From sequence record ON922919: a DNA stretch of 64,000 nt. One strand, given 5' to 3'. Positions 24,342-38,510 of the stretch are shown here, piece after piece. This DNA is from Escherichia phage vB_EcoM_PD205. Position numbers and translations under genes: made by a program. Position 1 is the stretch's first letter; the number at the start of each line of letters is the position of its first letter. The notes under the pieces are model-generated. The model worked only from the letters and a program-made list of their open reading frames with translations. It was not told the origin of the DNA and ran no database searches.

Positions 24342-27300
24342 TTGAATAGGAAACATGCTATGTCAACATTTGACCGTCTGGCAGGTTTCGCAGACAGCAT
24401 CACTAATGCTAAGCAAGTCGATGTCTCTACTGCAACCTCCCGGAAGCAAGCTGCACAGGGGCAAAGCCCTTTCCAATTAACCCCAGATAATGCTTACAAT
24501 CTCCAGACTGGACGAGTAGGTAATCTTGGAATCGGTGCATACGAACCAGGTTCACTTCAGGCAGATTTCACTCAAGCCTCCCCCTTAGAAATCATTAATA
24601 AGTATGGTAATGAGCAAGGTCTACAGATTCTTAATAGTCGAGCTAATGCTGCTGATGCTGTACGTCAGGACTTATCTAAACAACGTACTAACGCAGAAGC
24701 ATTTGGCGATATTCTTTCTGGTGTTGGTCTTGGTGTTGCTAATACCCTTGGGGGCATTGCTGCTCTTGGCACAGGCTTGGTCAATGATAATGCCGGGGCA
24801 TCCATTGCTTCCGGGCTTGACTGGTTGAATAAAGGTGTACACAACCTACAGTCTGATGCATTGAATGCTCGTCGTAATGTAGTACAGAACCAGAACGTAA
24901 TATCTGCACAGGAGAATGATAAACTCTATAAGCAGGATATTGCTAAAGGAGAAAGTGAACTCGTTGCTTCCCTGTCTCGAATTGGTCGTGATGCTTATGA
25001 TTCTGTCACTAATACACTTGATAATGGCATGGCTGCTACAGATGGCCTGGCTGAGGGCGTTGGTTCTCTGTTTACTGGTGGTCCACTAATTCGTGGTGTA
25101 TCTGCACTCGGTAAGGTAATGGTAGGTGGTGATAAAGCTGTTAAGGGCATTACCTTAGCTGCTGAGTTAGGTTCACGTCCTGCACGGATTGCACAGTCTG
25201 CTGGGCGTATTGCTGCGCCTGCTATAGCAATTGGTGGTATGGAAGCTGGTGGTGCATACCAACAAACTGCCAATGAAATTATGGAAATGCCATTCAGTGA
25301 ACTGGCTGCTAAATCTCCTGTATACCAACAGCATATTAAAGACGGTCTGTCTCCTGAAGAAGCACGACGTCAGACTGCATCTGAAACAGGTATCACTGCT
25401 GCTGGCTTAACTGCTCCAGTTGCTGCTCTTACTGCTCCACTGGTATCCAAGTTTGAACTTAACCCACTCAAGGTAGGTTCACTGGCTGGTGCTGGTTCTA
25501 ACATGCTGCGTGAGACTGTAGAAGAAGGTATCCAGTCTGGTACTAGCCAGCTTGCACAGAACAAGGCAATTCAGGGTAATGTAGATGCTAAGCGTGATTT
25601 GCTTAAAGGCGTGGGTGAACAAACCGGTCTTGGTGCATTGTATGGCTTCGGTTCTGCTGGAGTTGCTCAAGCTCCTGGTACAACTGTTAAGGCTGCTGGT
25701 GCTGCCGTTGGTCCTGCTGTACGTACTACCCTGGCTGGTGCTTCTCTGGCTGGTAAGGCACTAGCAAAAGTAGCTTCCCCTATTACTACCATCCTGGTTC
25801 AACGTGGTGAAGAAGTTGCTAAGCGTAATGAACAAGCATCCCCTGTATCAGACGCTACAGTTAACGCTGCTGCACAGGAAGCCACTGCTCAGGCAGAACA
25901 AGCACAAGCAACTGTTCAGGAAGCAGTAGATGCAATGGATATTTCTCCTGAAGAGAAAACTGCTGCTACTCAGTATGCTGCTGATTTAACTCAGGCAATG
26001 AAGTTTGACCCTGTAGAACTGGAGCAAGCTAGTCCGACAATCCGTGAAGCTGTTTCTGGTTCTACTAACCGTGTTGAAGCTATTCAGAAGATGGCTGACC
26101 TGGTTAATACTGCTGAAGACCCTAACGTTCAAATGGAAGCTGCAATCCAGATGTATGACAACATCATGTCTATGGATAGCTTCATTAACCGTGACCCAGG
26201 TGCATTAGCTAATCTAGAACAAGGTTCTCCTGCTGCTGCAATCGTAGACCAGTTCTCCGGACTGATGGCTAACGTTCAGAATACACCGAAGGTACTCCGT
26301 GCATTCCGTGCTATCCATTCCATGATTCAGGAACAGGCAGAAGCAGGTAAACTGAAAGCCACTGAAGAAGCTAATCAAGCCCAGGCAAACAACATTGCTA
26401 TGGCTGCTGATATGTCTCCAGAAGTACTGGATGCAGATTCAGTTAACATGGTTCTGAAACACGCAAGTGAAGGTAAGATTACACTTGGGAATCGTCAGCG
26501 TGCTGCCCTGCAATCTGCTGCTGCTTTATTGCAAGGAGCACGAGAATTTGACGCTAAAGCAGAAGAACTAGGCTTACGTCCTCAAGACATTGTTAGTAAA
26601 CAGATTAAAACCGACGAATCTCGTTCTAATGAAGGTCAGTACTCTGCGTTGCAACACGCTAAACGCATTCGTTCTGCGTACAACTCTGGTAACTTCGATT
26701 TGGCTTCCGCTTATCTCGACGACTTTATGAAGTTCGCCCAGCACATGCAGAATAAGGTCGGAGCGTTGAATGAGCATCTGATTTCTGGGAATGCGGATAA
26801 GAATAAGTCTGTCCATTATCAGGCTCTTACTCCCTCGCGTGAATGGGTACGTAGTCGTACTGGCCTCGGTGTCAATCCGTATGATACCAAGTCTGTTAAG
26901 TTTGCCCAGCAAGTAGGACTGGAAGCCAAGACCGTAGCTGATATTGCTAACGCACTTGCTACGGCTTACCCGGAGCTTAATGTTTCTCATGTGAAGGTTA
27001 CCCCATTGGATTCACGTCTGGACAAGCCTGCTGCCCAGGTAGTTAAAGAGTTCCGTCAGGGCAATCTTGATGCTGCTCAATCCCAACAGACCAATGAACC
27101 AGTGAATCAGGTTGATGAAACTCCTGTTACGAAACAGGAACCAGTTACCCCTACTGTACAGACTAAACCCTCTGTTAGTGAAGCTGTTAAAACAGAACCT
27201 ACTAATAAAGAGTCTAATCCACAGACTGCAAAAGAACCTGAGAACCAGTCTGAAAAACAGGATACCATCAAGCAGTCTACTGAATCTGAAAGGGATGCTT

Positions 27301-30300
27301 ATGTAAAAGAGAATACTATTTCCCAGGATACTCTTAATAAGTACGGTGACCGTAGGGAGAGTCCGTGGCTCTTTGCAGATGGTACTGTTGTTGGTTCTAA
27401 TGGTGACCATATCAGCCTGTCTGATGTATTTGGTCATGATGGTTATCGTGATATGTCATTAGATACTGGTGCTATTCGCTCCACTTTCTACAAAGGAAGT
27501 GAGCAACCATTTGTATCATTACAACTGTTTGATAATCAAAAGCTGACTCCTGAACAATTTAATACTGTTCAATCATTCGTAGAAGCAAACAATGCACTGA
27601 TTCAGGTTGGTGTAGATACGTCTGGGCGTAATACCAATAACGTTAAGAAGGAAGAAGTATCACTGGCTCAACTGAAAGCAGACTATACCGTTGGTGGTAA
27701 ACCTCTATCGGAAATGGAAACAGTGTTCCCTGTCTATAACAATGACAAGACACCGAACCAGTTCCTGAAAGCATTTACCCTTCCGGAAGAACCTAAGTCT
27801 CGTACCATTGGTTCTGAATCTCCTTTGACCGATGTTAAGAAAGCACTATCCTCTGTTGCTCGCTTTGAGGCATTCACTCAAAAAGAAAATAACGCTCTCA
27901 CAAGTGATGTGATTAAGCGTTACCAGGACTTGTTTGATTTTGGTGAAACTCTGAAGACTACCTTGTCTGACCGTCTTGCTAAGTTCCTTGCTAATAAGAA
28001 TGTTGGTAAACGCTTTGCAGAAGGTACTGAGGCTAATCGTTGGGTAGGTGGCAAACTGCTTAACATCGTAGAGAAAGATGGAGACACCTTTAAGTTCAAT
28101 GACCAGTTGTTAGAGACTGCTGTACTTGCTGGTCTGCAATGGCGACTGACTGCTACACAGAATGCTGCCATTAAAGACATGAAAGACGTAGCTGCTATTA
28201 CTGGTGTAGAAGCATCCCTGTTACCTGAAGGTATTCTGGCTGACTTCGAGAATGCTCAGACTCTGGTGGAAGCCACTAACTCTCTGGCTCAAAAGATTGA
28301 ATCTTATTGGGGTTTGAATCGTAATCCTAATGCACCCCTGGGTTATACCAAGGGTATCCCAATGGCAATGGCTACAGAGATTCTGTCTTCTCTCATTGAG
28401 ATGGGTGAAGTTAAAGAGTCTATGCTGGATGTGTCTGAGATTGACCCAGAATCCAATAAGACTGTTGGTCTGTATACCATTGAGAAGCTGGATGATAACG
28501 ATGCCATTAACAAATTCCCTACTGCTATTGAGGAAGCTGTCCTCGTAGAACCAGTAGAGAAACTGTACCTGGGTGATGATATTCCTTCCGTGGCTCAAAC
28601 TCAGTTACGTAACCCGGCTGTCAAGAATACCCCGGAACAGAAAGCTGCTCTTAAAGCAGAACAGGCTACTGAGTTCCGTGTACATATGCCGATGGTTAAC
28701 TTCTACGAAGCATTGGGTCGTGACAACATTCTGGAACTAATGGGTGCTGGTGCTCTTACCCCAGAATTGCTGAATGTGAATACTGCTAAATCTCTGGAAG
28801 GTAAAAACCTATCCGTGTCTATGGCATATGATTCCTTGTTTGGTGTAATCAATCAGATTAAGGAACAAGAGAATGGACTGGATACACCTATCCACTATGG
28901 CTACAACATGACCCGTGTAGGTCGTATGCAGATGCTTGGTAAGAACAACCCACAATCCAGCAAGCTGGTACGTGAAGCAATCCTACCAACTTTCTCTACC
29001 ATCGACTTGAGTAATGAAAACAGCCAAACGTTCTCTGACTTCCAGCTTGGACTGGCTCAGGCATTGGGTATCAAAGTTCATAAAATGTCCCGTGAAGTTA
29101 TGTCGGATGAGCTGACTAAAGCTCTGGAAGGTAAATTGAAACCTGCCGTTGATATGATGGTTGAGTTTGATAAGTCTGGGCACTTACCTACTGATGCTGT
29201 GGATATTCTGAAGACCTCTTTGGGTAATGATAAATCATTTGTAGCTCTCATGGCTCTGATGGAGTATGCCCGTTACTTGAACAGTGATGACCGAGCCAAC
29301 TTTAATACTCCACTGTACGTTGAAGCTGATGGTGTAACCAACGGGCCAATCAACGCAATGGTATTAATGACTGGTGGTAAGTTCACTTCAGACTGGATTA
29401 AGAATACTGCTAAGGGTGGTTTGTTCTTCGGTAAAGCAGGTAAGACCATGAACGAGCATCATTCGCATGAGGACAGTGTTGACCTGTATGAAGCATCCAC
29501 TAATAGTCTACAACAGGCACTGAATGAATTACGTAGTACTTATCGTAACAACGTTCCTGTTACGAACCAGATGAAGCATCTTCAGAAGTTAATGGACCTG
29601 TTCATTAAAGACTTCAATCTTAATGAAGATGGTACTCTGGACCTGAAACGTGGTATCGCTAAAAACCCACTGACTATTACCATCTATGGCTCAGGTGCTC
29701 GTGGTATTGCAGGCAAGATGGTTAGTGCAATTACTGACACCATCTACGAACGCTTCAGTGACGTTCTACAAGCCCGTGCTGCTGACCCTAGCATTTCCCC
29801 AGCTATGGCTATGTTTGGTAAGGAGGCTGCGTCTGAGGCCGATGCTCAGGCTATGCTGGATACTTTCCTTACTTCTATGGAAGCACTGACTGGTAATGTT
29901 CCAGTTATGCGTAAAGGTGAACTGTCTATTCAACAAGCAGAGGGTGCTCTGTCTGGTAAGTTAGACCCCCAGAAGTTTACCGTATCTGGCAATGCTCTGA
30001 AGAACCTGCAAGAGAATATGCTTCACCTGTTCGTTGAACCAATGCGTACTGGTATCCGAAATACCGTTGGCGAAGGTCTGATGCACTCTACTGAGAACTT
30101 GCAGAAGGCTACTCAGATTCAATCTCTGGTATTGCAGGATATGTTCCAACAAGCAGTACAGGCTAAGCTGACAGAAAAAGAAAAAGACCCAACATGGAAG
30201 AAAGGTGATTTCTTAACACAGAAAGAACTAAATGAAATCCAGGCTTCATTATCTCCACTGGCTCCAATGATTGAGACTGGTTCTCAGACTTTCTACATTG

Positions 30301-33300
30301 CTGGTAGTGAGAATACTGATGTTGCTAACCAAGTATTGGCTACTAACTTAGATGACCGTATGCGTGTGCCAATGAGCATTTATGCTCCTTCACAGGCAGG
30401 TGTTGCAGGTATTCCATTTATGACCATCGGTACTGGTGATGGCATGATGATGCAGACCCTTTCTACTATGAAAGGTGCTCCGAAGAATACCCTGAAAATC
30501 TTTGATGGTATGAACATTGGCATTAATGACATCACTGATGCAAGCCGTAAAGCTAATGAGGCTGTATATACTTCCTGGCAGGGCAATCCTATCAAGAATG
30601 TTTATGATTCCTTTGCTAAGTTCATGAAGAATGTAGACTTCAGCAAACTGTCTGATGAAACCAAACAAGCTATCGCTAAGTCTGCTCTGGAGTATGACCA
30701 GCGTGAGGGTGCTACTGATGACCTGTTACGTGTTGGTGCTGAACAGATTGAACGTAACCTGCGTAACATTGCTTTAGGTGTAGATATTCGTCACAAGGTA
30801 ATGGACCAGGTACAAGTCACTGTTGACCAGATGGCTGCTGTAGGTGCTCCTTATGTGAACAACGGTAAAATCTCTTTGGAAGGTCTGACTGTAGACCAGC
30901 AAGTAGCTAAGCTGAACGAACTGTTTGATGCTGAATTAAACAAGCGTCGTGATGCAGTACGTGCTGCTAAAGCAGAACCAGTGAAAGAAGTACCAGCTAT
31001 GGAACAGGTTGGTCGTGTACTGAAGTCTGGTGTACGTCTGCTGTCTAATACTGCTATCGCTAAACTGGCTAAAGAGATGTCTCCTGAACAACAAGCAGTA
31101 TTAAAAGAAATACAGAAATCCCTTGCTGCCAAAGACTATAAGGTTGTTTACGGTACACCTTCTCAACTGGATGCTTATGCTATTGAGAAGAACATTACTC
31201 GCCCAGCACCGGAAGATATTGAAGCTGCTGAAGCAGGTAATGCATATGGCTGGACTAACTTTGAAGATAAGACCATCTACTTAGTTACCCCTTCCTTAGA
31301 GACTCTGGTTCATGAATTGGTACATGCTTCTACTTTTGAATCTGTACTGGCTCACTATGAGGGTACTCCTAATGAAGCAGTCCAGAACATTGAAGACCTG
31401 ATGAATCAGTTCCTTACTCTGGATGTTAAGGATGAATCCCCGGCAGTACGTGAAGCATATGCTGATGCACTGAATACCATTAATGGACACCTGTCTAATG
31501 GCTTCATTGAACCAGCGATGGCTAAAGCTGCTGCGTTGAATGAGTACATGGCATGGGGCTTAACCAACCGTGAACTGATTGGTAAGCAGAAGAAAACTAC
31601 TGCACTGAAAACTATGGTTCAGGCTGTATATGAAGCAATCAAACGTCTGGTATTCGGACGTAAGAAAGCTCCAGCTAATGCAGATGATATGTTCTCTGGC
31701 TTACTGTTTAACTCTGCTGTAGTAATGCGTGGACAAGCTCCTACTGCTGCTGTAGCCAAAGACACTACCCTGTTCCATAACAAAGCGTATGGTGAAAATA
31801 CTCGTCTGGAAGGGCTAGGGAAAACCTTTGATAAGTTGATTACTGACTACATTGGTTCAGAACCAGTACAGCAAGTAATTCGTAAAGGTAAGTTCTCTGA
31901 TGCAGTAGTGAATGCAACTAAAGTAACTCGTGATGTTCAGGCACATGGCTTCACCATGAATATGCAGGAACAGCGTCTATTTACTAACATTGTTGCTGCA
32001 CTAGCTACCGAGGCTGCTATTAACCCTGCTGCTTTGGCTCGTGCACAGGAATACTACACACATGTTACTAAGAACCTGACCGTTGAAGCATTCATGGCTG
32101 ACCCGGATAGTACTAACCCTGCTGACCGTTACTATGCACAGCAGAAGTTCGATACCATCATGGGTGCTAACAACATTGAGTTTGATGCACAAGGTCGTTC
32201 TTCCTTACTGCCTACCTTTGTTGGACTGGCAATGGTAAGTGAAGAGGTACGTAAAGTACTGGCTGATATTCCTGTTATGAAAGTAGATAAGAAATCAGGC
32301 AATACCGTTGATGCAATGCTGACTAACATCGGTACTGCTGCAATGGCTAGTCTGAATGCTCGTGTAGCAGGCGATACTAAAGCTACTAACGTACAGGAAG
32401 GTATGGATGCACTGGCTCAGACAATCATGCAGACCAGCCTTAATGCAGAATCCTTCTATGATTCCGTTGCTACTCCTACTGGTAATGCTATTGACCGTGC
32501 TAACCAGTATCTGGTGGACTCTATTGATGTACTGTCTACCCGTGCTTTGGAAGGTGCTCGTGAAGTTGCAGCTAATACCAAGAATCCATTGGTTAAAGGT
32601 GCTGCTCATGCTGCACAACTGATAGCTGCTATCGCTACAGAGAAGAATGGTTCAATCGTAGCTGAAGGTGTTATGGCTGCAATGAACCAAGGTAAAGTAT
32701 GGCAACCTTTCCATGACCTGGTTAATGACTTAACTGGTCGTACTAAGAGCAATGCTTCTGTTTATGATTTGATTAAAGCAGTACGTGCACAGGTACAGGC
32801 TGACCGTCAGCAATTCCGTGAGCATTTACCTACCACTATCGCATCTAAGTTCAGTCGTAAACTGACTAATGATGAGTGGAGAGCAATGCATACTGGTATG
32901 GGTAAGACTGACTTAGCTGTTCTGCGTGACACTATGTCTCTGGATGAAATCCGTGACCTGCTGACTGACCAGAAGATTGTTGACCGTGAGGTTAATAAAC
33001 TGGAAGCAGATTTGCAGAAACAAGCCGGACGTAACTGGCCTCTGATTAACCGTAAATCTAAGCAACTAGCTCAGTATATGATTAACGGTACGGTTGGTAA
33101 TAACCTGCTGCGTAATGCTACTGCAATTTCTCGCTTGCTGGGGGAACGTAAGACTACACGTTCTGTTGTAGATGTAGCTCAACTGGATAAATTGATTACC
33201 CTGTATGCACTGGAAGCAATGAGTAAGACTGACCGTGAGATGTTATCTTCACTGGCTCAGACAGAAATTGAAGGTATGGATTTTGCTACTTCTTATCTGG

Positions 33301-35114
33301 TTGGTCAGCGTAAAGATGAAATGGCTAAAGCTAAGTCTGATAGTCGTGCAACCTTGAACCAGTACAAAGGGTATATCCCTAGCGAGAACAAACAGGGAGT
33401 TAACCTGATTGTTGCTGAAGATAGTCAGTTCTCTGATTTGATTGAGAAATCCTATGTACGTCTGGGTACTTATCAGGGTAGTTCTGCTAACCGTGGTGCA
33501 GCACGTAGTTACTACTTTGCACCGGTACAGGCACAGGCTCCATTCTCACAGGGTATCCTACAGAACGTTCGCAATACTGCTGGTGGTGTAGACCTTGGTA
33601 CAGGCTTTACGATGGGAACCATGGTAGCTGGTCGTATCACTGACAAACCTTCCGTAGACCGTATTACTAAAGCACTGGCTCGTGGTGAACGTGGTAATGA
33701 ACCACTGCTGCCTGTATATGATGCCAATGGTAATGTGATTGCTTACGAGCAATCTATTGACCCTAATATGCTGAAGCACATTGAAGGTGAGAACCATCTT
33801 GCTCGTGCAATTGGTGTATGGCGTGGTCGTCAAGTAGAAGAAGCTAAGGCCCAGCGTTTCAACGATATTCTGATTGAGAATCTGCACAGCATGTATGAGA
33901 ACGACATTAAGATGTCTGCTTCTAATAAGTCCCAGTACGTTAACCTTCTTGGTTCTAAACTGGACCCAGTAACTGCCGATGCTCTTAAACTGATGAACAG
34001 TGAAACTCGTCAGAAAGCAGAAAGTCTGTTTGGTCCGGGTGAGTTGTGGGTACGTCGTGACATGCTTAATGATGCTTTAGGTTATCGTGCAGCTTCTGTG
34101 GGTGATGCCTGGTCTGGTAATTCTCGTTGGTCCCCAGAAACACTGGATACCTTCAAGAAAGCTATGCTTGGTGTCTTCGGTAACCGTGCCTATAAGTATG
34201 TAATGGGTGGTGAGAATCTGGTTCAAAACTTAGTTAAAGAAGCTAAGACTCTGATTGTAGTTAAATCAGTAGTCGTACCTGCTGTTAACTTCCTGGCTAA
34301 CCTTTACCAGATGGTTGCTCGTGGTGTACCTGTTAAGAATATTGCTAAGAGCATTCCACAGAAGACTGCTGAGATTAACCAGTATCTGAAATCTCGTCTG
34401 CGTCAGGTAGATGCAGAAGCAGAGTTACGTGCAGCTACTAACCCGAACCAGATTCGTAAGCTGAAGGCCGAGATTCAGTCCATCACGGATAGCCATAAGC
34501 GTTTAAGTATCTGGCCTCTGCTGGAAGCTGGCGAGTTCTCCTCAATTGCAGATGCTGGTATTGGACGTGATGACATCCTGATTACTGAAGGTAAACTTCA
34601 CGAGTACATGGATAAGCTGGCTGATAAGCTGCCTAAGTCTGTACGTAACGCAGGACGATATGCACTTATTACTAAGGATACTGCTCTGTTTCAGGGTATC
34701 CAGAAGACGGTTGAATACTCTGACTTTATCGCTAAGGCAATCATCTATGATGAACTGACTCAGCGTAAAGGTAAGACTCGTGAAGAAGCACTTGGACGTG
34801 TAACGGAAGAGTTCATTAACTATGACCGTTTGCCAGGTCGCTTCCGTGGGTATATGGAAAGTGTTGGTCTGATGTGGTTCTACAACTTTAAGATTCGTTC
34901 TGCAAAAGTTGCAGTGTCCATGATTCGTAACAACCCAGTCCATGCTGCTATGGCTATGTTGGCCCCAACTCCTACCATGTTTGGTAATGTTGGTCTGCCT
35001 ATTCAGGATAACATCTTTAGCATTGCTGCACAGGGTAACCTTGGTTACTCCTTCGGTTTCGGTCAAGGTTTACGTGCCCATAACCTTAACCCTTGGCTCA
35101 ACCTTACTAACTAA
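24342..35114 (+). CDS. virion RNA polymerase (giant N4-type vRNAP)
   Basis: single 3590-aa ORF; T7-like RNAP motif A-like YVEADGVTNGPINA and motif B-like LKRGIAKNPLTITIYGSG in the central region. Confidence 0.88.
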   Translation: MNRKHAMSTFDRLAGFADSITNAKQVDVSTATSRKQAAQGQSPFQLTPDNAYNLQTGRVGNLGIGAYEPGSLQADFTQASPLEIINKYGNEQGLQILNSRANAADAVRQDLSKQRTNAEAFGDILSGVGLGVANTLGGIAALGTGLVNDNAGASIASGLDWLNKGVHNLQSDALNARRNVVQNQNVISAQENDKLYKQDIAKGESELVASLSRIGRDAYDSVTNTLDNGMAATDGLAEGVGSLFTGGPLIRGVSALGKVMVGGDKAVKGITLAAELGSRPARIAQSAGRIAAPAIAIGGMEAGGAYQQTANEIMEMPFSELAAKSPVYQQHIKDGLSPEEARRQTASETGITAAGLTAPVAALTAPLVSKFELNPLKVGSLAGAGSNMLRETVEEGIQSGTSQLAQNKAIQGNVDAKRDLLKGVGEQTGLGALYGFGSAGVAQAPGTTVKAAGAAVGPAVRTTLAGASLAGKALAKVASPITTILVQRGEEVAKRNEQASPVSDATVNAAAQEATAQAEQAQATVQEAVDAMDISPEEKTAATQYAADLTQAMKFDPVELEQASPTIREAVSGSTNRVEAIQKMADLVNTAEDPNVQMEAAIQMYDNIMSMDSFINRDPGALANLEQGSPAAAIVDQFSGLMANVQNTPKVLRAFRAIHSMIQEQAEAGKLKATEEANQAQANNIAMAADMSPEVLDADSVNMVLKHASEGKITLGNRQRAALQSAAALLQGAREFDAKAEELGLRPQDIVSKQIKTDESRSNEGQYSALQHAKRIRSAYNSGNFDLASAYLDDFMKFAQHMQNKVGALNEHLISGNADKNKSVHYQALTPSREWVRSRTGLGVNPYDTKSVKFAQQVGLEAKTVADIANALATAYPELNVSHVKVTPLDSRLDKPAAQVVKEFRQGNLDAAQSQQTNEPVNQVDETPVTKQEPVTPTVQTKPSVSEAVKTEPTNKESNPQTAKEPENQSEKQDTIKQSTESERDAYVKENTISQDTLNKYGDRRESPWLFADGTVVGSNGDHISLSDVFGHDGYRDMSLDTGAIRSTFYKGSEQPFVSLQLFDNQKLTPEQFNTVQSFVEANNALIQVGVDTSGRNTNNVKKEEVSLAQLKADYTVGGKPLSEMETVFPVYNNDKTPNQFLKAFTLPEEPKSRTIGSESPLTDVKKALSSVARFEAFTQKENNALTSDVIKRYQDLFDFGETLKTTLSDRLAKFLANKNVGKRFAEGTEANRWVGGKLLNIVEKDGDTFKFNDQLLETAVLAGLQWRLTATQNAAIKDMKDVAAITGVEASLLPEGILADFENAQTLVEATNSLAQKIESYWGLNRNPNAPLGYTKGIPMAMATEILSSLIEMGEVKESMLDVSEIDPESNKTVGLYTIEKLDDNDAINKFPTAIEEAVLVEPVEKLYLGDDIPSVAQTQLRNPAVKNTPEQKAALKAEQATEFRVHMPMVNFYEALGRDNILELMGAGALTPELLNVNTAKSLEGKNLSVSMAYDSLFGVINQIKEQENGLDTPIHYGYNMTRVGRMQMLGKNNPQSSKLVREAILPTFSTIDLSNENSQTFSDFQLGLAQALGIKVHKMSREVMSDELTKALEGKLKPAVDMMVEFDKSGHLPTDAVDILKTSLGNDKSFVALMALMEYARYLNSDDRANFNTPLYVEADGVTNGPINAMVLMTGGKFTSDWIKNTAKGGLFFGKAGKTMNEHHSHEDSVDLYEASTNSLQQALNELRSTYRNNVPVTNQMKHLQKLMDLFIKDFNLNEDGTLDLKRGIAKNPLTITIYGSGARGIAGKMVSAITDTIYERFSDVLQARAADPSISPAMAMFGKEAASEADAQAMLDTFLTSMEALTGNVPVMRKGELSIQQAEGALSGKLDPQKFTVSGNALKNLQENMLHLFVEPMRTGIRNTVGEGLMHSTENLQKATQIQSLVLQDMFQQAVQAKLTEKEKDPTWKKGDFLTQKELNEIQASLSPLAPMIETGSQTFYIAGSENTDVANQVLATNLDDRMRVPMSIYAPSQAGVAGIPFMTIGTGDGMMMQTLSTMKGAPKNTLKIFDGMNIGINDITDASRKANEAVYTSWQGNPIKNVYDSFAKFMKNVDFSKLSDETKQAIAKSALEYDQREGATDDLLRVGAEQIERNLRNIALGVDIRHKVMDQVQVTVDQMAAVGAPYVNNGKISLEGLTVDQQVAKLNELFDAELNKRRDAVRAAKAEPVKEVPAMEQVGRVLKSGVRLLSNTAIAKLAKEMSPEQQAVLKEIQKSLAAKDYKVVYGTPSQLDAYAIEKNITRPAPEDIEAAEAGNAYGWTNFEDKTIYLVTPSLETLVHELVHASTFESVLAHYEGTPNEAVQNIEDLMNQFLTLDVKDESPAVREAYADALNTINGHLSNGFIEPAMAKAAALNEYMAWGLTNRELIGKQKKTTALKTMVQAVYEAIKRLVFGRKKAPANADDMFSGLLFNSAVVMRGQAPTAAVAKDTTLFHNKAYGENTRLEGLGKTFDKLITDYIGSEPVQQVIRKGKFSDAVVNATKVTRDVQAHGFTMNMQEQRLFTNIVAALATEAAINPAALARAQEYYTHVTKNLTVEAFMADPDSTNPADRYYAQQKFDTIMGANNIEFDAQGRSSLLPTFVGLAMVSEEVRKVLADIPVMKVDKKSGNTVDAMLTNIGTAAMASLNARVAGDTKATNVQEGMDALAQTIMQTSLNAESFYDSVATPTGNAIDRANQYLVDSIDVLSTRALEGAREVAANTKNPLVKGAAHAAQLIAAIATEKNGSIVAEGVMAAMNQGKVWQPFHDLVNDLTGRTKSNASVYDLIKAVRAQVQADRQQFREHLPTTIASKFSRKLTNDEWRAMHTGMGKTDLAVLRDTMSLDEIRDLLTDQKIVDREVNKLEADLQKQAGRNWPLINRKSKQLAQYMINGTVGNNLLRNATAISRLLGERKTTRSVVDVAQLDKLITLYALEAMSKTDREMLSSLAQTEIEGMDFATSYLVGQRKDEMAKAKSDSRATLNQYKGYIPSENKQGVNLIVAEDSQFSDLIEKSYVRLGTYQGSSANRGAARSYYFAPVQAQAPFSQGILQNVRNTAGGVDLGTGFTMGTMVAGRITDKPSVDRITKALARGERGNEPLLPVYDANGNVIAYEQSIDPNMLKHIEGENHLARAIGVWRGRQVEEAKAQRFNDILIENLHSMYENDIKMSASNKSQYVNLLGSKLDPVTADALKLMNSETRQKAESLFGPGELWVRRDMLNDALGYRAASVGDAWSGNSRWSPETLDTFKKAMLGVFGNRAYKYVMGGENLVQNLVKEAKTLIVVKSVVVPAVNFLANLYQMVARGVPVKNIAKSIPQKTAEINQYLKSRLRQVDAEAELRAATNPNQIRKLKAEIQSITDSHKRLSIWPLLEAGEFSSIADAGIGRDDILITEGKLHEYMDKLADKLPKSVRNAGRYALITKDTALFQGIQKTVEYSDFIAKAIIYDELTQRKGKTREEALGRVTEEFINYDRLPGRFRGYMESVGLMWFYNFKIRSAKVAVSMIRNNPVHAAMAMLAPTPTMFGNVGLPIQDNIFSIAAQGNLGYSFGFGQGLRAHNLNPWLNLTN

Positions 35115-35927: not shown

Positions 35928-35984
35928 AGAGTGGTTTGAGTTTGTACTTAAACATGATTGTGCTTACTAATACTCAAATAAAAA

Positions 35985-36004
35985 AGTCCCTCCGAAGAGG
36001 GACT
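35985..36004 (-). terminator. intrinsic terminator
   Basis: AGTCCCTC-CGAA-GAGGGACT 8-bp hairpin preceded on + strand by AAAAAA (T-tract on - strand). Confidence 0.6.
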
Positions 36005-37018
36005 TAGTAGCTTTAACGCAGCTAACGAGGCTTGTATGAGTGCTGGGATTTGCAACTCCCAGCATATCCCCACCGTTTTAGCTGACGGCAAACAGAGATT
36101 GATAGTCTCAGAGGATACTTTACTCAGGCTAGGATTTAAGGAGTTCCTATTCTCCAGCGAAATTCCCGTCGAGGGGAATAACAATACAATAGCAGCCACT
36201 GGACTGTCTTACCAGTGTTGTCTTTAGAGTGCAATGCAATCAGGACTATGTTACTGCTAAATAGGTTGAGTCATGCCAGACTTTAACTGGCTCCTTCTTC
36301 GCAATCCTTACATACCCCTACATAATTATTGCGTTAAGCTTTTTTGTTTAAGTTTAAGTGAAGGCGTTCTTGCTGACTCATAATAGGGTGGGCGTTTGAC
36401 GAATGACTAGTTCGTTACTACCCGTTTGCCATAAGTACCTGGCGACTTTGGTTTGAGGTGGGAGTCCGATTCCTGTACAGCCTTACCGTTCACACATTGG
36501 CAGCGTATCTAGAATAGCACTTCCAGCAACTGGATTTAACTGTTACACCTCAAATCTGGTAGGGGCGTCCAGAAGTCTCATCTGGTACTTACGCTGTCGT
36601 ATGGTTACGACTTACCCCCATAGTTAGTTGCTCGGATCACCCCCTTGACTAAAGTGACCTTTGAGGGGCTACGCTACACTATGTGTTTCATCCCATTACA
36701 GAGAATCATCAGGCGTATTAGTTGGTCACCCCGGATACCTACTTGCCGAGCATTGGTATCGTATGGCTCGTCCAATTAGAAGTAGCACTGTTGCAGTCGT
36801 CACTGCTCATAGGTAAGGATTCGAACCTTACAATACCATTGGTTTGCAACGTCGCTGTACCATTTCGCGTTCTATGCAATGCTACTTTGAATTGGTTACC
36901 AGTGAGGGATTCGAACCCCCGGTTGGAGTCTATAGCTTACCGCAGCAGCCCTCCAATCTAGCGGTGTCACACTTAGTCCAAACTTGAACATGTCAAGCCA
37001 TCTCGTGCAACTGGTAAT

Positions 37019-37084
37019 TGGTTCCGGCGTCTGGACTCGAACCAGAACACTCATGCCGTGCACGACACTAGTACCTACACCGGA
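37019..37084 (-). tRNA. tRNA-like element (short, identity unresolved)
   Basis: on - strand: 7-bp acceptor stem TCCGGTG/CGCCGGA, T-arm TCTGG-TTCGAGT-CCAGA, encoded 3-prime ACCA; only ~29 nt between acceptor and T-arm, so D/anticodon arms are not canonical. Confidence 0.35.
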
Positions 37085-37258
37085 ATAAATTGCCAGGGAT
37101 TCCACCTGGCTCCATCTGTTTTTATAGTCACTCAGATATCGTCTGGACTTGCTGTGGAGTGACGCACCATCTCACTCTTGAATGTTAACCCATTCCCAGC
37201 CCCACAACACACTCTACGGTTAAGATTATCGCGTGTGTTGTATGGTCTTGCTGGTCAC

Positions 37259-37337
37259 AACAGGTAAGAGCATTTAACAGAAGATAGGTCTGATTGCCTC
37301 GGATAATTTCTCAGTAGCCTAAATGCTCTTACCTGTT
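37259..37337. repeat. 17-bp perfect inverted repeat (long hairpin, 45-nt loop)
   Basis: AACAGGTAAGAGCATTT at 37259-37275 and its exact reverse complement at 37321-37337. Confidence 0.8.
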
Positions 37338-37610
37338 GGTTCCCCGTTTCTAATACACGGACGGGGACACTCCATGGTCGTTTGATAATCAGGACGACTC
37401 ACTCCTGACTGACGCTTGGCTTATTAGGCTGCCATCAGAACAACATCATCGTTTGCATTTATGTTATTGGTTCGTTTCTAAAAAACCGCATAATCGCTTA
37501 CGAAAACTATCAAAGAGTACACTAGCACAGGTAGCTACCCTGCCGTCTTCTCTATTTACACCGGCTACAGTGTAAACCTCCGCACGTTAGCCTAATGTAC
37601 TCATTGATAG

Positions 37611-37680
37611 GATGTCAGTAGGTCGGGGGCTGGATTCGAACCAGCGAGAGAAGTAGCGACCATCTGCACATGCCTACGTG
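37611..37680 (-). tRNA. putative tRNA gene (anticodon unresolved)
   Basis: on - strand: 7-bp acceptor stem GTCGGGG/CCCCGAC, D-stem GCAC/GTGC with GG in loop, T-arm GCTGG-TTCGAAT-CCAGC; anticodon stem imperfect by hand folding. Confidence 0.45.
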
Positions 37681-38510
37681 CTACCCCGACCATTATAATA
37701 GGAGGGAGGGGACGAGTCCTCCCTTTATACCCTATATTGCATGTAAGACCTAACAATTCGATGCTGTAGGTAGCTATGCTATCCGACATTTAACCCAGCC
37801 CATATAGGGGCTTATGTGATTAAAATGCTCAACATTGAGCGGTTAGTTTGATAAGGGATCTGAAGCCTTATCCCAAAGATACTAACCTTTGGGATATAGC
37901 CTATCATTCAGAAATGGCCCCTATAGGGAGAGGCCATTGATTAACCCGAATGTTGCTTTACATTTGCTGTGATAACCTATTCTTAAAATAGTCTACCTGA
38001 CGGATGGGCATAAACCCTAGCGTCAGTGCCATACGGCAAAGATTAAGTTAAGAAAGGTTATGATAGGAGTTCCTATCTCAAAGGATTCTGACAGAACCCT
38101 TCACGATATTAACTACTCTTTTTCAATGCTTCAACTTCACCCTCTTTATACCAAGCATACGGTATTAAGATTTTGCAGCCTTATGAATCAATGTGGAATG
38201 CTTTGTTTCCTTCAGCAGGTTCTCCACCCATGAAAGAACTAACCTTTCCATTGAGCCAGTGAATAGTAAATTTGTTCATATTAACCCCGGTTGAACCAAT
38301 GGACTTCGGAGAGTATTAAAGCCCACTGGTTCGGTTGTTGTTATTCTGGCGGCTTGTCACCACCGTGTTTACCACTGCATTTCCACAGGATAATGACAGT
38401 GATGATAAAAGCTATGTATGGAGCCGACACGTCTATAATCCTGACCAGTAGTAGCATCAGGACTATAAACACTACCACACCTAGCAGCAGCTTCTGAGCC
38501 ACCTACCAGA

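Follow-up and report, generated by a model that had tools for sequence, protein, structure and literature searches.

A transfer-messenger RNA-like element with an arm complementary to host ssrA, found in the tRNA array of an N4-like phage and in many unrelated phages

What occupies about 2.5 kb without a convincing protein gene in an otherwise densely coding phage genome? We address this question for positions 35928 to 38510 of a 64,000-nucleotide (nt) stretch of Escherichia phage vB_EcoM_PD205 (ON922919; the whole stretch is called the window here), a region for which an original prediction, made from the letters alone, had proposed degenerate tRNAs, tRNA-like structures, a large structured noncoding RNA (ncRNA) or a replication origin. 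We find here the locus at which an N4-like phage carries its tRNA array, built of exchangeable tRNA-derived small-RNA modules. Its main feature had been overlooked: a GC hairpin noted in the original prediction, together with part of the apparent spacer, belongs to a transfer-messenger RNA (tmRNA)-like RNA of about 170 nt (conserved core 37342..37509, minus strand) that carries a tag reading frame and lacks a tRNA-like domain, recognized from a subthreshold Rfam match, its homologues, and covariation. The core belongs to a large, unannotated family of tmRNA-derived phage RNAs in which the resume context, the tag frame, helix 5, and two pseudoknots are kept.

At gathering thresholds, a check against Rfam returns no match in the whole window. 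A permissive scan places the tmRNA_permuted family (RF04321) on 37526..37424 of the minus strand with 32.7 bits (E = 3e-4; threshold 47), and the center of this match reads AUAAAU-GCA AAC GAU GAU GUU GUU CUG AUG GCA GCC UAA UAA. It holds a start-less frame, GCA AAC GAT GAT GTT GTT CTG ATG GCA GCC TAA (37424..37456, minus strand), for the peptide ANDDVVLMAA*, very near the Escherichia coli ssrA tag ANDENYALAA, with a second stop codon directly after it (37423..37421, minus strand). Ahead of the resume codon GCA lies a 12-nt A/U-rich linker, AAUAACAUAAAU (37457..37468, minus strand), with U-5/A-4 as in E. coli tmRNA. The tag region yields the same subthreshold family in the window and in five of six unrelated phage loci scanned (26–33 bits vs. 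47); the sixth locus, in phage HK633, gives the tmRNA family RF00023 only, at 11 bits. Two other signals were set aside. Aligned in the sense direction with E. coli ssrA, the element matches in the tag region alone, which is not significant by itself, and a relaxed ARAGORN run (-ps80) made five “tmRNA” calls, four of them plainly spurious and one, a permuted call on the true tag, joining arbitrary flanks, so that it served as a lead only.

The frame is conserved as a coding sequence. Among 177 copies, collected with two independent sequence anchors and from loci obtained by blastn, 46 nucleotide versions encode 28 peptides of 10 codons from GCA to the stop, all of the form AN[DE]x..x[AV]A-stop (P at the end in one copy); examples are ANDDLMMVAA (in phage P1), ANDEQFLAVA, ANEEMYLAVA, ANDNAYLMVA, and ANDNAFRVAA. 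Summed over these copies, the entropy at codon positions 1, 2, and 3 is 6.65, 5.41, and 11.01, and in the final two codons variation is nearly confined to the third position. An in-frame stop lies eight codons upstream in 139 of the 177 copies, with no ATG, GTG, or TTG between. An AUG overlapping the resume codon (AAAUGCAAAC) opens a short open reading frame (ORF) in the +1 frame, whose peptides differ in length and sequence (MQTMMLF, MQTITRI, MQTMI, and others). The AAAU ahead of GCA was built into the search anchor of both anchored sets, and its constancy there is no evidence; it is also present in seven loci obtained by blastn. A group with the peptides “ANEQANET/ANEHAKET” from the pattern scan proved to be a false positive, sitting in protein-coding sequence without pseudoknots, and was excluded. 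The pattern GTTTTCGT...AAATGCAAAYGA also occurs in an apparent conserved protein gene of metagenomic phages (IMG/VR contigs L010, L013, L014, L016, L018, L020, L030, L069, L074-76, L100, L104, L108, and L114), where it produces spurious 8-codon “tags”, a trap for pattern-based surveys of this tmRNA-like family.

Downstream, the 3' part of the frame enters a hairpin resembling helix 5, CUGAU/GUCAG (37409..37438, minus strand), whose loop contains the stop codons and in which four of four pairs have changed on both sides. Two H-type pseudoknots, both identified by covariation, follow on the same strand. Pseudoknot a (37377..37408; stem S1 37408-37403/37394-37389, stem S2 37398-37395/37380-37377) is paired in 97% (S1) and 88% (S2) of alignment cells, and eight of its nine pairs show compensatory changes. 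In pseudoknot b (37342..37376; S1 37376-37371/37361-37356, S2 37366-37362/37346-37342, CCCCGT/ACGGGG), S1 is paired in 100% of cells and has four compensatory pairs. Stem 2 of pseudoknot b is the GC hairpin CCCCG/CGGGG of the original prediction (37366-62 / 37346-42), which is real. These counts come from a MAFFT alignment (A1) of 30 representatives with mutual identity under 88%. Taken together, helix 5 and the pseudoknots are paired in 90.7% of cells, as against 32–46% in slid controls; changes on both sides occur in 20 of the 23 pairs, double-change cells number 129 vs. 14–22 in the slid controls, and none of 500 shuffles is equally good. Comparison across related phages, which the original prediction had called for, also revealed compensatory pairs in three other modules of the array (tRNA-like RNAs #2 and #3 and module M2, below).

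We further find the element in phages of unrelated groups. A blastn search with a query of ~280 nt matches 409 phage records, nearly all without annotation beneath the match, from N4-like, Vi1-like (Ackermannviridae), FelixO1-like, P1-like, and T1-like (Drexlerviridae) phages, Salmonella phage 7-11, and the lambdoid phage HK633; a second query adds phiEcoM-GJ1-like, Erwinia, Pantoea, and Vibrio phages. The copies of P1 (NC_005856:68893-69158) and RCS47 are 100% identical, and that of P7 reaches 98%. Complete E. coli genomes carry the element in 657 of 5,426 cases (12%), with 555 sites on plasmids of about 75–450 kb, mostly 90–100 kb, and 150 on chromosomes; 90–100 kb is the size of P1-like phage-plasmids, the plasmids not having been checked individually. 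In the records inspected the element is never annotated as an RNA gene, PGAP placing nothing there or occasionally a hypothetical protein, and even the richly annotated P1 record has no feature at this site. The P1 copy is part of the transcript that starts from the C1-controlled P1ban/P2ban promoters; the annotated dicF-like region with its terminator hairpin immediately precedes it, and trnA (Asn) and trnT (Thr) follow. T1-like copies (including that of phage Akira), FelixO1-like copies, and copies in tRNA arrays have a sigma-70 promoter, TTGACA-17-TAGATT or TAAGAT, directly upstream; the tRNA-array copies are ~180–200 nt long and have tRNAs as direct borders.

In the Vibrio harveyi phage vB_VhaS_MAG7 (L199, about 470–680), the element stands alone between two genes related to tails, accompanied by a promoter-like sequence and by a terminator hairpin that a U run follows, both judged by eye. 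This copy is more distant, and its tag has 13 codons, ANDESNGEMRLVA. A record named “Staphylococcus phage Pel53” (PP952070.1) contains a 199-nt element 94.5% identical to the copy of phiEcoM-GJ1-like coliphages; the element of Vibrio phage pYD38-A (L198) is near-identical to that of IMG/VR contig L063, which looks T1-like; and Aeromonas phage pIS4-A has a match of 63 nt only. For these three, the host labels may be unreliable, or the relatives may be very broad.

The 5' end of the element is an arm of ~40 nt, UAGUUUUCGU-AA-GCGAUUAU-GCGG-UUUUUUAGAAACGAACC (37469..37509, minus strand), which is a reverse-complement homologue of host ssrA nt ~53–107, a target that spans pseudoknot PK1, the resume codon, and codons 1–6 of the host tag. 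Apart from the tag, the 5' motif (U)AGUUUUCG is the best-conserved part of the element, and it perfectly complements 8–11 nt within E. coli ssrA nt 96–107 (GACGAAAACUA[C]), which are host tag codons 3–6; in PD205 the perfect complement is 10 nt, to ssrA 97–106. In the set anchored without the arm motif, 106 of 121 copies have GTTTTCGT, and most others have GTTTTCG followed by G, C, or A, GTTTTCT, or the one-base variant ATTTTCG. Further 5' blocks extend the complementarity to ssrA in order (GCGAC/GUCGC, UUUGCGG/CCGCAAA, CUUUUUA/UAAAAAG), where the ssrA sequence GUCGC comprises the -1 triplet and the start of the resume codon, and CCGCAAA is the 3' strand of PK1. In the MAG7 arm, GUAGUUUUC...GCGAUUGUUUU, two departures from the host complement are still able to form G-U pairs.

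Statistical comparisons support this match. In Smith–Waterman alignments of the arms with reverse-complemented ssrA (nt ~53–107), the median z is 6.4, and 67 of 73 arms beat all 200 shuffles. In 59 of 62 arms the RNAduplex optimum falls on ACGAAAAC. The mean duplex energy is -31.4 kcal/mol for ssrA, compared with -19.0 for the homologous region of the element itself and -25.3 for reversed ssrA; pairing as good is reached by 4–13 of 1,200 random 363-nt phage segments, some of which include the arm's own complement. A cis partner for GUUUUCGU between -400 and +700 is absent from about nine in ten true family loci, an upstream complement occurring only in phiMAM1 and 7-11, and beyond the arm a blastn-short comparison of the whole region with ssrA finds chance 7–10-mers alone. 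On the host side, ssrA was taken from 120 gammaproteobacterial species, and 14 of these genes, from Vibrio, Aliivibrio, Photobacterium, Serratia, Erwinia, Pantoea, Yersinia, Providencia, Gilliamella, Oceanisphaera, and Aliiglaciecola, were compared together with that of E. coli K-12: nt 75–108 are invariant in these 15 genes save for one difference in A-run length and one inserted A (V. diabolicus). Conservation of the arm across phages of different hosts fits such an invariant target.

The spacing also corresponds, with 12 nt from the end of the arm to the phage resume codon and 11 nt from the end of PK1 to the resume codon in E. coli tmRNA. From its sequence, the element looks like an inverted pair, in which the antisense copy still fits the host and changes in the sense copy fall exactly where the two could otherwise pair with each other (CCAC in place of CCGC, AAAU of AGUC, GAUGAU of GACGAA). 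The arm has what marks a trans-acting antisense small RNA (sRNA), namely extended complementarity at one end of the RNA, conserved among homologues, here directed at the single-stranded tag region.

Does the element have a tRNA-like domain somewhere in cis? None was found in the window or in 130 loci with ARAGORN at default settings, a custom search for T arms and acceptor stems, and Rfam. ARAGORN at default settings calls no tmRNA in any family locus, and many loci have no tRNA between -1000 and +1500. A search near the element for a T arm plus an acceptor stem with the G3:U70 pair, long hairpins included, returned nothing consistent, only ordinary tRNAs or stems without G3:U70. An ssrA-like 16-nt T arm in one prophage copy (L011) is not general and was dropped. 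The element has a start-less frame at a resume codon that encodes a tag, and a stop codon in helix 5 followed by pseudoknots (two, not three); it lacks the tRNA-like domain, G3:U70, PK1, a gathering-level score (RF00023 gives at most 11 bits), and a default ARAGORN call. Where PK1 would be, the upstream region has no conserved internal pairing and is instead antisense to host PK1 and tag. Nor is there the 5' acceptor strand of a permuted tmRNA; what lies upstream varies among the phages and may be a promoter, terminator, tRNA, or hairpin. In promoter-bearing copies the transcript starts at the antisense arm, and the MAG7 copy ends at its terminator. Since it has no tRNA-like domain and is bordered by promoters, a terminator, or tRNAs, the element is predicted to be a free-standing or processed RNA of ~170–200 nt that is not itself aminoacylatable. 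It would act like the coding piece of a two-piece tmRNA, yet it comes out negative in the tests that define a tmRNA.

The remainder of the array includes tRNA-like RNAs, all on the minus strand. As the original prediction had noted, the T-arm motif GGTTCGARTCC occurs four times; we find it nowhere else in the 64-kb window, where 0.03 occurrences are expected (100 shuffles). Three of the approximate positions given for it hold (36817, 36907, and 37033, the last given as about 37034), and the fourth is 37632 rather than 37622. This last motif belongs to a noncanonical tRNA (#1), for which bounds of 37611..37680 and a 7-bp acceptor stem had been proposed; it runs from 37691 to 37620, with an acceptor stem of 8 bp, and is the one tRNA that ARAGORN, run as the original prediction advised, calls in the window at default settings, as tRNA-Ala(cgc). 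It has a 6-bp D stem with a 4-nt loop, a weak anticodon stem, and a 5-bp T stem, and the dimensions of its acceptor, T, and D arms are those usual in tRNA-Sec. A long variable arm, G3:U70, and an encoded CCA are all missing; its anticodon is CGC, relatives annotate it as tRNA-Ala, the Rfam tRNA-Sec model gives it 30.5 bits (gathering 47), and its fold has z = -2.64.

The element at 37084..37019 (RNA #2) was described correctly, with its 7-bp acceptor stem, T arm, and encoded ACCA; between these lie an unpaired UAGGUACUAG and a 5-bp hairpin. It has the shape of the bare tRNA-like domain of tmRNA, without an anticodon arm and without G3:U70, its T stem and hairpin carry compensatory pairs in the Klebsiella phages KP8 and Kpn16-P2, and the N4 copy is 98.7% identical. 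The remaining two T arms had been thought to lack an acceptor stem. That at 36907 has one of 7 bp (UACCAGU/ACUGGUA, then A and CCA), its strands enclosing a long tRNA-like RNA of 124 nt (#3, 37016..36893) with two expanded internal arms, in which two acceptor pairs, plus others, are compensatory in KP8 and Kpn16-P2. The other belongs to the weak element #4 (36806..36878), which has a good T arm, an acceptor stem with one mismatch, no CCA, and z = -0.65, and sits in a PD205-specific block. None of #1 to #4 matches the tRNA model RF00005 even at E <= 10 (threshold 29 bits; true tRNAs of relatives score 44–75 bits), #1 alone among them is called by ARAGORN at default settings, #2 and #3 have no normal anticodon arm, and neither their acceptor stems nor those of the long hairpins have G3:U70 in a credible register. 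The proposal of tRNA-like structures beside phage tRNA genes is thereby borne out, both by the tRNA-array locus in N4-like phages and by the compensatory changes in these RNAs.

Two long hairpins flank the tmRNA-like element. LH2 (37507..37610, minus strand; z = -4.76) has an 18-bp stem around two hairpins, one of them a 5-bp/7-nt hairpin in T-arm position, and its 3' strand adjoins the antisense arm. The stem of LH1 (37338..37258, minus strand; z = -4.96) is the perfect 17-bp inverted repeat that the original prediction had rightly pointed out; it is conserved around a variable cargo and recurs in T1-like, P1-like, lambdoid, and Vi1-like phages at ~91% identity. Across the long-hairpin family, the stems CAGGUAAGAGCA/UGCUCUU[A/U]CCUG are kept and a cargo of 45–90 nt varies, often with a T-arm-like 5-bp/7-nt hairpin beside the 3' strand; in P1-like and lambdoid contexts, many of the long hairpins contain a true T arm. 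Tandem copies border the element in P1-like phages and, downstream of PR'/tR', in lambdoid prophages (loci including L006, L011, L021, and L034). We suggest that they may serve as tRNA-like processing punctuation that would free small RNAs; alternatively, they could be RNase III sites or cassettes resembling miniature inverted-repeat transposable elements. Two further hairpins, recognized by folding and comparison with relatives, lie in a PD205-specific block (37252..37150, minus strand). A structured module of ~100 nt, M2 (36454..36552, minus strand), is closed by the stem GAGGUG/CACCUC, which in N4 is GGGAUG/CAUCCC, that is, two compensatory pairs around an interior 96% conserved; M2 also occurs in 150-kb Enterobacter, Pantoea, and Pectobacterium phages and has no Rfam match.

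The window comes from an N4-like phage of the genus Gamaleyavirus, with Bp4, ECBP1, and PBM-3 as kin, and holds the virion RNA polymerase ORF of 3,590 amino acids at 24342..35114 on the plus strand. Genes on either side of the flagged region are encoded on the minus strand, and its sole strong terminator, an intrinsic one with a 9-bp stem and a U run (35976..36005, stem 36005..35984), is likewise on the minus strand and closes the array; the region is therefore read from ~38500 to ~35980, as one minus-strand transcription unit ending at that terminator. The description of the whole region as protein-free has to be narrowed, since it does not hold for the upstream ~330 nt. A conserved ORF for a small hydrophobic membrane protein of 53 amino acids (38502..38341, minus strand), whose amino acid identity is 100% in relatives L001-3 and L124 where the DNA is ~90% identical, marks the true upstream edge of the noncoding array. 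A possible 32-amino-acid ORF (38279..38181, minus strand) lies at the same edge. With these two ORFs upstream, about 35928..38180 is noncoding.

At the corresponding locus, relatives hold tRNA-Ile and other tRNAs. Whole modules differ: Bp4, ECBP1, and PBM-3 have a tRNA-Ile and a pseudo-tRNA that PD205 lacks, and there are converse differences too. Among close relatives the differences are exact indels of ~60–250-nt modules (window positions 36252/36267, 36626..36872, 37150..37340, and 37527..37694), the exchanged modules including tRNA-Ile(AAU), a pseudo-tRNA “Cys/Thr ACA”, the LH1 block, and the tRNA #1 block; this indel pattern suggests cassette-like exchange at conserved junctions. Single modules are common to unrelated phage families at ~90% identity. 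In phage N4 itself (NC_008720:32203-34108), ARAGORN gives tRNA-Asn, -Ser, -Thr, and -Pro where the reference record annotates no RNA genes.

What might an RNA with a tag template, no acceptor domain, and an arm complementary to host tmRNA do? We propose, with a probability of roughly 0.4–0.45, that the phage RNA base-pairs with host tmRNA, hiding the host tag template and offering a phage template instead, to give a chimeric two-piece tmRNA. The RNA would be freed from a long transcript at the flanking tRNAs or tRNA-like hairpins, or in other phages be made from its own sigma-70 promoter, and a discrete RNA of ~170–200 nt with its 5' end at or near GGUUUUCG is expected. Its 5' arm would pair with host tmRNA nt ~53–107, so that a helix between the two RNAs stands in for PK1 and encloses the host resume codon together with the first six tag codons; the phage resume codon would thereby come to lie 12 nt past the helix, where the host template normally sits. 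Alanyl-tmRNA with SmpB would still enter stalled ribosomes, translation would resume on the phage template, and rescued proteins would receive the phage-specified tag (AANDDVVLMAA in PD205), the acceptor piece coming from the host and the coding piece from the phage. Such a hijack would explain together why there is no tRNA-like domain, why the tag is conserved in the manner of a coding sequence, and why the U-5/A-4 context is kept and an antisense arm is present. In the phage tags, Leu or an aromatic residue precedes a terminal -MAA, -VAA, -AVA, or -MVA; the ClpXP degron consensus is [L/F/Y/W]-[L/A/R]-L-A-A, and FKLVA is a strong degron (bioRxiv 10.1101/2024.01.29.576913). By this resemblance they are probably still degradation tags. 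More speculatively, the element might serve as a spare template once toxins have cleaved the host tag region.

Several considerations weigh against this proposal. The discrete RNA, its binding to tmRNA, and its decoding are all computational predictions. A helix of ~40–50 bp is much longer than PK1, which puts in question how a ribosome would load a template so tethered, and in short-arm subfamilies pairing covers ssrA nt ~80–108 only. Duplex energy by itself would allow on the order of 100 equally good sites per E. coli-sized transcriptome, ssrA being singled out among them because it is the obvious a priori target; the invariance of that target in all hosts sampled leaves a test for trans-covariation without power, and part of the antisense similarity could be left over from an inverted duplication that the tag region underwent in an ancestor. 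Because the tags resemble ordinary ClpXP degrons, what a phage would gain from the swap is not evident. The same antisense evidence would serve equally an RNA that is purely an antisense inhibitor or sponge of host tmRNA, blocking the host template and slowing or shutting down trans-translation while its own tag is never translated, with the tag frame and pseudoknots mimicking tmRNA to recruit SmpB, S1, or RNase R or to stabilize the RNA. This requires no unusual ribosome mechanics, and antisense oligonucleotides to tmRNA suppress trans-translation in E. coli extracts (PMC3384345), which makes inhibition of host tagging the minimal effect to be expected of the arm. We nevertheless regard inhibition as the whole function as unlikely, since synonymous drift would not be expected from imitation of tmRNA purely as an RNA, and the frames show a third-position entropy about twice that of positions 1 and 2, 46 versions collapsing to 28 peptides, and tags of exactly 10 codons, nearly all ending in A-stop, that keep the AND start and the hydrophobic/aromatic pattern of the ssrA degron.

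A tmRNA assembled from several phage pieces, in which another phage RNA supplies the tRNA-like domain and the antisense arm is incidental, is less probable still. RNA #2 would be a natural candidate, with its acceptor stem, unpaired D-like loop, short helix, T arm, and ACCA, its conservation with compensatory changes, and its presence in N4, as would the T-arm-bearing long hairpins that flank the element in P1-like and lambdoid contexts. Yet these candidates have neither G3:U70 nor obvious complementarity to the element, in the loci examined RNA #2 occurs in N4-like phages only, no tRNA-like partner lies near the element in HK633, in MAG7, or in many prophage copies, and the conserved complementarity to host ssrA would be left unexplained. 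The mosaic nature of the locus, with modules present or absent between close relatives, the failure of several tRNA-like elements against tRNA models, and the weakness of #4 are what one would see in a graveyard of decaying tRNA and tmRNA fragments carried as nonfunctional passengers of a recombination-prone locus; the spread of the core through many unrelated phage families and 12% of complete E. coli genomes, the compensatory changes in 20 of 23 pairs and in RNAs #2 and #3, and the codon-level conservation make this very improbable. Least probable of all is that the region holds an ordinary tiny protein gene, a replication origin, or a large structured ncRNA, the last two having been raised in the original prediction. 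A tiny gene could use the AUG overlapping the resume codon, but the +1 ORFs are variable, the GCA frame is the one conserved, without a start codon, and there is no Shine–Dalgarno sequence. The many inverted repeats would suit an origin, for which we find nothing else, the strand-skew change at ~35 kb coinciding with the switch in gene orientation. GOLLD, ROOL, and the other large ncRNAs in Rfam have no match at gathering level or at E <= 10, and modules that are exchanged independently between phages argue against one large RNA.

How does the proposed chimeric tmRNA relate to known systems? Like bacterial tmRNA (ssrA, RF00023; E. coli 10Sa), the element has A/U-rich sequence with U-5/A-4 ahead of its resume codon GCA, a start-less tag frame of AND....AA type, and stop codons in helix 5 followed by H-type pseudoknots, with sequence similarity to ssrA in the tag region only; unlike it, the element has no acceptor stem, T arm, CCA, G3:U70, P2, or PK1, measures ~170–200 nt against ~360, has two pseudoknots rather than four, and is antisense to tmRNA nt 53–107 at its 5' end. 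In the two-piece permuted tmRNAs of alpha- and beta-proteobacteria and cyanobacteria (RF01849-51, RF04321), a coding and an acceptor piece are likewise joined by base pairing alone, and tmRNA_permuted is the element's best, subthreshold, Rfam match; their pieces come from one gene and the coding piece bears a 5' acceptor strand, whereas the phage coding piece has none and its proposed partner is a complete host tmRNA, held via the tag region. To our knowledge, tmRNA has been taken as a universal one-gene bacterial device. Phage genes derived from tmRNA are not without precedent: among 543 bacterial viruses, the survey of Hudson, Lau and Williams (2014) found tmRNA in the mycobacteriophage Bxz1 group and Bacillus phage G and a tRNA-like domain only in DS6A, and it lists neither P1 nor any other enterobacterial phage with ssrA (PMC4131195). 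DS6A resembles the present case as a partial tmRNA that has persisted and differs in keeping the opposite half, while the genes of the Bxz1 group and phage G are full-length.

Phage and prophage sRNAs such as DicF and the anti-sRNAs AgvB and AsxR are similar in being small RNAs of phage operons that pair with host RNAs, and the P1 element itself follows a dicF-like region. Their targets are mRNAs or sRNAs, and we know of none of the three that targets tmRNA or carries a translatable tag frame. The classical anti-ssrA oligonucleotide covers the tag-coding stretch, the same one as the phage arm. Synthetic anti-ssrA oligonucleotides, used in ribosome display and cell-free translation, are antisense to tmRNA and suppress trans-translation (PMC3384345), as proposed for the arm, but they are man-made DNA and inhibit only, whereas the phage RNA adds a conserved tag template and pseudoknots. 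None of six family tags turned up in a search of about 8 million full texts, and the literature searched yielded nothing relevant on phage RNAs that are tmRNA-like, ssrA-like, or directed against tmRNA.

If true, the proposed mechanism would be categorically new. Should the pairing model hold, this would be the first virus to edit the output of trans-translation and the first two-piece tmRNA drawn from two genomes; should only inhibition hold, it would be the first natural anti-tmRNA. Under the pairing model, enterobacterial and vibrio phages, P1 and P7 as well as many N4-, T1-, lambda-, Vi1-, and FelixO1-like phages included, would reprogram host ribosome rescue in trans. Part of the “junk” of phage tRNA arrays would gain a concrete function, and the element merits a place in RNA family libraries and annotation pipelines.

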